Below, piece after piece: positions 13,987 through 14,352 of a DNA stretch of 15,907 nucleotides. Every line of letters begins with the position of its first letter. Positions within the stretch are counted from its first letter, which is position 1. The stretch is from NCBI RefSeq assembly GCF_003334335.1, contig NZ_QOWQ01000058.1. The stretch is one strand, 5' to 3'. This DNA is from Escherichia coli (GTDB lineage Bacteria > Pseudomonadota > Gammaproteobacteria > Enterobacterales > Enterobacteriaceae). The notes below the pieces were generated by a model. The model was not told the DNA's origin and made no database searches. It saw only the letters and a list, made by a program, of their open reading frames with translations. Both the position numbers and the translations under genes were made by a program.

Positions 13987-14352
13987 TTACAGTCCGATGA
14001 TGTCGTCCTCTCTGCCACTACCTCCGGACACCTCCGGCAGCGTCGGGTCCGGCATACCACTCGCCGCTTCACGAGCAGACTTTTGTCGATGGCATTCGGC
14101 ACAGAGCGTCCAGAGATTCGTCTCCTCATTACCACCACCGAACTGAAGTGCAATTCGGTGATCGAGTTCACTGTCACAGAGGTCAACCACACGACCACAG
14201 ATACAGCACTGCCCGGCGTCCCTCAGCCAGATATGACGCTTGAGGGAAACACGTGCACTGCCACTGACACGACGCTGCTCCCCCTTCAGAATATTCACCC
14301 GTCGGGTATTCAGTGTTTTGATTCTGCTCTGGAGTGTACGAAGCTCAGCCAT
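13987..14352 (-). CDS. HNH endonuclease (terminase-associated, HK97 gp74-like role), 121 aa
   Basis: ATG at 14352..14350. HNH motif CCICGRVVDLCDSELDHRIALQFGGGNEETNLWTLCAECHRQK; located immediately upstream of the cos region and terminase genes. Confidence 0.85.
   Translation of the reverse strand: MAELRTLQSRIKTLNTRRVNILKGEQRRVSGSARVSLKRHIWLRDAGQCCICGRVVDLCDSELDHRIALQFGGGNEETNLWTLCAECHRQKSAREAASGMPDPTLPEVSGGSGREDDIIGL

Follow-up and report, generated by a model that had tools for sequence, protein, structure and literature searches.

A small HNH endonuclease gene next to a predicted cos site and the terminase genes of an Stx-type lambdoid prophage in Escherichia coli

The 15,907-nt stretch of Escherichia coli DNA analysed here (contig NZ_QOWQ01000058.1 of assembly GCF_003334335.1; hereafter the window) carries on its minus strand a small HNH endonuclease gene, followed by a non-coding spacer of 290 bp and by the genes for the small (TerS) and large (TerL) subunits of a phage terminase, with a predicted cos site located in the spacer (Table 1). 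A preliminary description of this locus had assigned positions 13987-14352 to an HNH endonuclease directly upstream of cos and terminase, leaving the strand unstated, and had taken the whole for an HK97-type packaging module. The open reading frame (ORF) spans these coordinates exactly, and the proposed order holds when read on the minus strand. Moreover, the succession HNH, cos, TerS, and TerL, which had been regarded as an established layout, is the same in phiP27, where the cos site is annotated, and in HK97 once the ends of its chromosome are joined.

The identity of the gene product was established by profile searches. The 121-amino acid protein matches the Pfam HNH profile PF01844 over residues 49-94 (E 4e-7) and HNH_5 (PF14279) with E 9e-5, and among the PHROG families it matches phrog_589 'HNH endonuclease' (E 1.8e-44) along with more than 20 further HNH PHROGs. 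In NCBIfam, we did not find a specific model for the HNH, TerS, or TerL protein of the window. We aligned the protein with its counterparts from Lys8385Vzw, Salmonella phage FSL SP-016 (hereafter SP-016), Moraxella phage Mcat7, Vibrio phage Marilyn, and phiP27, and with HK97 gp74. Across these seven sequences, C49, C52, D64, H65, N79, C84, and H88 are invariant. The preliminary description had named missing catalytic residues as evidence against its proposal; in the alignment, both the catalytic and the zinc residues are intact. An AlphaFold2 model of the protein (mean pLDDT 72) is confident in the core (81-92) and of low confidence in the N-terminal 30 and C-terminal 20 residues, and it shows a helix, two strands, and a helix, i.e. 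a beta-beta-alpha-metal finger, with a disordered tail and no additional DNA-recognition domain. When this model was compared with the PDB using Foldseek, the matches were almost all HNH-type nuclease domains (Cas9, Cap5, HNH-Cascade, McrA, and the Gme nuclease 4H9D), and a PDB sequence search likewise returned HNH-type nucleases.

The position of cos was derived from a close relative. Lys8385Vzw is an induced Stx1 phage for which DNA from CsCl-purified, DNase-treated particles was sequenced and PhageTerm returned a 3′ cos with the sequence CGCCCCCCCT (PMC7946995). Its record, MT225100, has exactly CGCCCCCCCT as its last ten bases, ends 59 bp after its own HNH gene, and starts 184 bp before its own annotated TerS, the start of which precedes by 45 nt the GTG start adopted for the window TerS. 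As the two phages share 95.9% identity in the HNH protein and about 96% in the spacer, the ends could be transferred to the window by alignment, which places the cos site 50 nt past the HNH stop codon and 229 nt ahead of the TerS start codon. On the minus strand the predicted nick falls after position 13926, and on the plus strand at a distance of 10 nt from it, which would leave a 10-nt 3′ overhang. This placement agrees with two independent comparisons. The phiP27 record annotates a 10-nt cos, CGCCCGCCCC, 61 nt after the HNH gene and 44 nt before TerS, while the right end of HK97 reads ...GAC/CGCCGCCAAA (a slash marks the nick here and below), with gp74 ending 319 bp before this end and gp1 starting 49 bp past the left end; the HK97 overhang is given as 10 nt and 3′ in two reports (PMC9410871; PMC11331095). 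The motif GAC(AC)/CGCC at the left nick is common to the window, Lys8385Vzw, phiP27, and HK97. Thus, the proposal of cos-type packaging is supported, and headful packaging, named in the preliminary description as a finding that would speak against it, is contradicted by the cos ends of Lys8385Vzw. The record PV189401 (phi330) mentions cohesive ends in a truncated note but is cut inside TerS, and was of no help in placing cos.

This arrangement is widespread and remarkably constant. The DNA around the HNH gene has 92-99.5% identity to its counterpart in many phages that convert to Stx1 or Stx2 production. Among them are BP-4795, 2851, 1717, YYZ-2008, JLK-2012, and Lys8385Vzw, which, like the RefSeq E. 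coli prophages, carry the same HNH gene (82-100% amino acid identity) with the same neighbours, their alleles differing only in one base of the overhang, the length of a G-run, and the C-terminal tail of the protein. The region is present in 1,283 of the 5,426 complete E. coli genomes, in up to eight copies per genome, with the genes labelled in RefSeq as 'HNH endonuclease' and 'terminase small subunit'; in about 1,250 of these 5,426 genomes, the HNH gene and the cos/TerS region occur together. Counted by place, there are 2,933 HNH occurrences against 3,011 of cos/TerS, and the HNH gene is contiguous with the TerS/cos region in 82 of the 94 phage records that contain the latter. The gene order also extends to the diverged phages SP-016, Marilyn, and Mcat7, and distant HNH homologues are found at the record ends of Vibrio, Burkholderia, and Acinetobacter phages.

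Seven listed partial matches are copies of the PPompW prophage, in which the match stops at an insertion of the IS110-family element ISEc20 at the G-run. In PPompW_EH2201 (1046-2504 of the compared stretch), the junction corresponds to approximately position 13974 of the window; the HNH and lysis genes are missing upstream of it, and cos, TerS, and TerL are kept. The break was confirmed at the level of sequence annotation in this one record. The PPompW prophages of O157 strains thus represent natural HNH-minus variants, and they should be packaged only with the HNH protein supplied in trans.

Comparison with HK97 shows how far the label 'HK97-type' can be carried. The two HNH proteins are of similar size (119 amino acids for gp74), and the D-H, N, and H residues occupy the same alignment columns; gp74, too, closes the gene order ahead of cos, which TerS and TerL directly follow when the ends are joined. 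Both TerL proteins belong to PF03354, and BLASTP aligns HK97 gp2 with the window TerL at 23% identity over 489 amino acids (E 7e-11). Furthermore, HK97 shares the 10-nt 3′ overhang, a related GAC/CGCC core, and an upstream G-run. Among the HNH families, gp74 also matches phrog_589 (E 6e-24), its own best PHROG being 2323, to which the window protein has a match of only E 2e-4. The differences are nonetheless substantial. The second zinc knuckle of gp74 is CxxH and its DH-to-N insert is longer, whereas the window protein has CxxC-H. The distances to cos are also dissimilar, at 319 bp past the HNH stop and 49 bp before TerS in HK97 versus 50 and 229 bp in the window. Moreover, HK97 encodes TerL, portal, protease, and capsid as separate genes, unlike the window, where a protease-capsid fusion stands ahead of the portal. 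A reading of the whole module as HK97-like was ruled out, as a BLASTP comparison of the window TerS with HK97 gp1 found no match. The designation therefore fits only in part: it applies to the HNH protein, the TerL family, and the type of cos end, and not to TerS, which is of the Terminase_2 type, or to the order of the head genes.

Other known systems complete this picture. In the Stx2e phage P27 (phiP27), the HNH protein L34 is about 37% identical to the window protein over the HNH core and is set in the same order of HNH, 10-nt cos (CGCCCGCCCC versus CGCGCCCCCT in the window), TerS, and TerL, with a G-rich run and TCAAATCC upstream of cos. It differs by an extra Cys-rich N-terminal segment of L34, by a TerS of the P27/HK97 type that starts 44 nt after cos, and by lacking the CAGTTAACAT array described below. 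The Gme HNH nicking endonuclease (PDB 4H9D) is a prophage HNH protein beside cos and terminase as well, with a [CxxC]2 zinc site and the H-N-H residues; it matches the window protein in sequence with E 0.0026 and in structure at 1.5 A over 54 positions. Nicking endonucleases of the Gme and phage-gamma type (Xu & Gupta, PMC3592412) nick at defined sites and frequently carry additional zinc ribbons, whereas the window protein is without such a ribbon.

Taken together, these observations make it very likely that this gene of an Stx-type lambdoid prophage specifies a small HNH nuclease that works alongside terminase and is equivalent in function to HK97 gp74. In vitro, gp74 and related phage HNH proteins nick DNA with low specificity (PMC3592412), and gp74 stimulates cos cleavage (PMC9410871; PMC11331095). 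In terms of mechanism, the late operon ends ahead of cos with the HNH gene, which therefore marks the right end of the virion chromosome and would be joined to TerS and TerL only once the DNA has circularised or formed concatemers. TerS would probably bind downstream of the cut, at the CAGTTAACAT array and/or the A-tract flank, and TerL (PF03354 and PF20441) would be placed on the cos core ...GACAC/CGCGCCCCCT/CTCACG. In the zinc-stabilised beta-beta-alpha-metal active site of the HNH protein, H65 would act as the general base, with N79 and H88 as putative metal ligands. The protein may then either stimulate the TerL nuclease or itself nick one strand, and staggered nicks 10 nt apart would generate the 3′ cohesive ends. 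By analogy with gp74, we infer that the HNH protein is needed for cos cleavage, and the strand that it may cut, if any, is likewise suggested by this analogy. A linkage between the PF03354 TerL family and the need for an HNH partner was reportedly made by Kala et al. in PNAS in 2014.

Several points weigh against this interpretation. The packaging role is drawn by analogy with gp74, for which terminase stimulation and the need for filled heads have been shown, as far as known for gp74 only (PMC9410871; PMC11331095). A direct BLASTP comparison of the window protein with gp74 is not significant (E 0.096), and hence the kinship of the two was set via PHROG profiles and the motif alignment. Because the window TerS is unrelated to gp1, the protein-protein contacts may differ as well. 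The cos position is carried over from Lys8385Vzw, whose overhang differs at one base, and the prophage itself may be defective. Finally, some records label the gene a homing endonuclease, a DNase, or a restriction endonuclease, although these are annotation labels only.

These labels correspond to two of the alternatives that have to be considered. If the gene were a free-standing homing endonuclease, it would be a selfish mobile element residing beside the terminase with no part in packaging. Several GenBank records use this name, and HNH homing genes are described as common in phages and often located at module boundaries (PMC10055350). However, the presence of the gene is anything but sporadic: its tight co-occurrence with cos/TerS, in E. 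coli genomes and phage records alike, speaks against homing, and the listed phage records without the HNH portion are the PPompW copies broken at ISEc20. Its position is also kept across phages in which other genes have diverged or been replaced, and the protein, of only 121 amino acids with a disordered tail, has no additional DNA-recognition domain, all of which renders this explanation highly improbable. A role in defence or exclusion, in which a restriction-like nuclease, or one degrading competitor or host DNA, would be expressed from the prophage or late in infection, appears the least probable of the alternatives. In its favour are the labels 'restriction endonuclease' and 'DNase' in some records, the fold matches to the HNH effector domains of Cap5 from the cyclic oligonucleotide-based anti-phage signalling system (CBASS), McrA, and Cas9, and the low-specificity nicking by gp74 and related phage HNH proteins. 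Yet, these fold matches do not extend beyond the generic HNH core, and the neighbourhood contains no sensor, methylase, or partner gene. The HNH gene belongs to the late operon, flanked by lysis genes on one side and packaging genes on the other, rather than to a moron or immunity region. Such a role would also leave the conserved adjacency to cos unexplained.

The remaining alternative accepts the gene as a genuine packaging HNH and places it in a decayed, non-inducible prophage, where it would have no present function. E. coli genomes carry up to eight copies of the module, many lambdoid prophages of Shiga toxin-producing E. coli (STEC) are defective, and the window covers only part of the prophage. 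Nevertheless, every ORF of the window that belongs to packaging, head, or tail is intact and matches full-length PHROG profiles, the two-ORF portal described below recurs in the virion-derived Lys8385Vzw, and other genomes contain copies of the HNH ORF with 100% identity. We therefore regard decay as very unlikely.

The flanks of cos contain further conserved features. In Lys8385Vzw, JLK-2012, SP-016, phiP27, HK97, and the window, the cos overhang is preceded at a distance of 31-35 nt by a G-rich run followed by (T)ATCA (at ~1683-1700, ~3244-3265, and ~3230-3247 of the compared stretches in HK97, P27, and SP-016, respectively), so that the element spans phages with unrelated TerS proteins. The length of the run varies between G7, G8, and G9 among near-identical Stx phages. 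This element is possibly cosQ-like or a recognition element for HNH or terminase; to our knowledge, no function has been described for it. On the other side of the cut, the right flank of cos is kept in SP-016 despite an overall identity of ~68%. In HK97, TerS has its binding site in an A/T tract 15-29 bp past the cut (PMC11331095); since the TerS families differ, the likeness of the A6 tract in the window flank to this site is an analogy only.

Between cos and TerS, the spacer of the window harbours the CAGTTAACAT array, two sites of which form a palindrome. The 10-mer CAGTTAACAT occurs four times without mismatch, a number reached by 0 of 200 shuffles, and of the seven GTTAAC sites that the 15.9-kb window contains, five fall within 13773..13892. 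The array is kept in the Stx-phage relatives and is likely the TerS-binding region, a putative analogue of cosB. By comparison with lambda cosB, the AT-rich stretch between the GTTAAC sites was searched for the consensus of the integration host factor (IHF), WATCAANNNNTTR, with at most one mismatch; the spacer gave no hit, and hits over the whole window were fewer than chance would give. In SP-016 (3300-3330 of the compared stretch), where the cos core and flanks are conserved, the TerS ATG lies inside GTAAACATGTTAAC, only about 45 nt after cos, on which basis the Stx-phage lineage seems to have gained about 185 bp with extra copies of the motif. Indeed, the window copy at 13879..13892 looks like a relic of the ancestral TerS start, as ATG TTA AC would encode M-L-T, comparable to the MLTT... 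of the present TerS. This copy is also the beginning of a hydrophobic ORF of 24 codons (MLTGCPGIFAVFIFIIQFVVRKKC), the meaning of which is doubtful.

Considering both sides of the cut, we tentatively propose a cos architecture in the spacer that is common to phages with unrelated TerS proteins (HK97, phiP27, SP-016, and the Stx phages), in which the G-run/(T)ATCA element 31-35 nt upstream of the GAC(AC)/CGCC nick would serve in HNH/TerL recognition or as a termination signal like lambda cosQ, and the CAGTTAACAT array would be a lineage-specific insertion originating from the ancestral TerS start region. This is a conceivable scheme that we judge to have a rather limited chance of being correct.

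Most of what we describe is already known: the gene is annotated, work on HK97 has established what the family does, and the cos site of a near-identical phage has been mapped. The preliminary description was right to call the arrangement expected rather than novel: over 1,200 complete E. coli genomes carry this gene under the RefSeq name 'HNH endonuclease'. Mildly new, and comparative only, are the G-run/ATCA element in phages with unrelated TerS proteins, the CAGTTAACAT array, and the HNH-less PPompW variants. The main value lies in annotation, in that a prophage family widespread in E. coli and STEC can be assigned cos packaging with a 10-nt 3′ overhang, with the site placed to the base by homology, and that the public labels 'DNase', 'restriction endonuclease', 'homing endonuclease', and 'putative secreted protein' can be corrected. 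Knowledge of the cos site and of the HNH requirement helps to predict which co-resident Stx-type prophages, such as the HNH-less PPompW, are packageable or complement each other in trans, and to spot satellites that hijack this cos. No new biological question is opened by these results.

The 3′ part of the HNH gene contains a 10-bp tandem repeat (13990-14040; CCGGAGGTGT CCGGAGGT). In JLK-2012 (6713-7243 of the compared stretch), one repeat copy fewer causes a frameshift, and RefSeq calls a 176-amino acid 'HNH endonuclease', whose 55 extra residues correspond to the G-run, cos, and a portion of the GTTAAC array, the HNH core being unaffected. This long form is probably an annotation artefact of the tail-truncating indel. 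As a true gene it was ruled out, given that nearly all relatives encode 121 amino acids and that the long form arises from the loss of a repeat copy.

The rest of the window agrees with a late operon in which the HNH gene is the last late gene ahead of the packaging genes of a lambdoid prophage. The domain assignment of TerL rests on PF03354 (TerL_ATPase, formerly Terminase_1; E 2.9e-11) and PF20441 (TerL nuclease; E 2.1e-9). In the fusion protein that follows, the protease occupies residues ~1-281 and is succeeded by a major capsid protein of the HK97 fold. The two portal ORFs cover the halves 1-451 and 455-859 of the single 859-position profile phrog_2271. As the portal region of the virion-derived Lys8385Vzw is also made up of two ORFs, the second being shorter, the split is probably the normal state and not a pseudogene. 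Connector proteins, the major tail protein, chaperones, and the tape measure come after the portal.

Table 1. Features of the HNH-cos-terminase region and its surroundings, in window coordinates (residue numbers for protein domains)
Feature	Position	Strand	Details
HNH endonuclease gene	13987..14352	minus	ATG at 14352, TAA at 13989..13987; 121 aa
HNH beta-beta-alpha-metal core	residues ~49-94		C49xxC52, D64-H65, N79, C84xxC87-H88
G8 run followed by TATCATCC	13963..13978	minus	begins 8 nt after the HNH stop
Predicted cos cohesive end	13926..13935	minus	CGCGCCCCCT; junction of record MT225100 aligns here with 9/10 identity
cos right flank	13903..13925	minus	CTCACGCAGAGAAAAAATTCCCG; A6 tract at 13909..13914
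CAGTTAACAT array	13771..13894	unstranded	four exact sites and a fifth GTTAAC, with an AT-rich stretch between; 125 bp
Palindrome of two CAGTTAACAT sites	13877..13894
Terminase small subunit (TerS)	13133..13696	minus	187 aa; GTG start at 13696; GGAGG Shine-Dalgarno; phrog_641, E 1.8e-68
TerS N-terminal Terminase_2 DNA-binding domain	residues 2-57		PF03592, E 2e-8
Terminase large subunit (TerL)	11475..13136	minus	553 aa; ATPase and nuclease domains; phrog_9, phrog_7622
Prohead protease/major capsid fusion	9474-11411	minus	645 aa; phrog_617, phrog_80, phrog_10; directly after TerL, ahead of the portal
Portal, two ORFs with ATGA overlap	7898-9262 and 6678-7901	minus	phrog_2271, phrog_12
YlcI/YnfO gene (DUF3950, phrog_949)	14394-14594	plus	start 41 bp from the HNH start
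Lipoprotein with TonB C-terminal domain	14726-15067	minus	113 aa; signal peptide ending ...LVMGC
Rz-like gene, C-terminal part	15618-15892	minus	at the right end of the window
Embedded Rz1-like lipoprotein ORF	15707..15892	minus	MKLCALTLPLVVSAC..., proline-rich

Upstream of the HNH gene, the YlcI/YnfO gene is oriented opposite to the late operon, and the late transcripts must therefore read through it in antisense. A scan of 13600..14800 gave no promoter or terminator above shuffle expectation, so that there is no sign of a separate HNH transcription unit. The Rz- and Rz1-like ORFs at the right end of the window confirm that the lysis cassette closely precedes the HNH region. A phage-borne lipoprotein gene is interposed between the lysis genes and the HNH gene, and its product matches the TonB C-terminal model TIGR01352 with 54 bits (cut-off 27) and is assigned by PHROGs to phrog_1267 'Rz-like spanin'.
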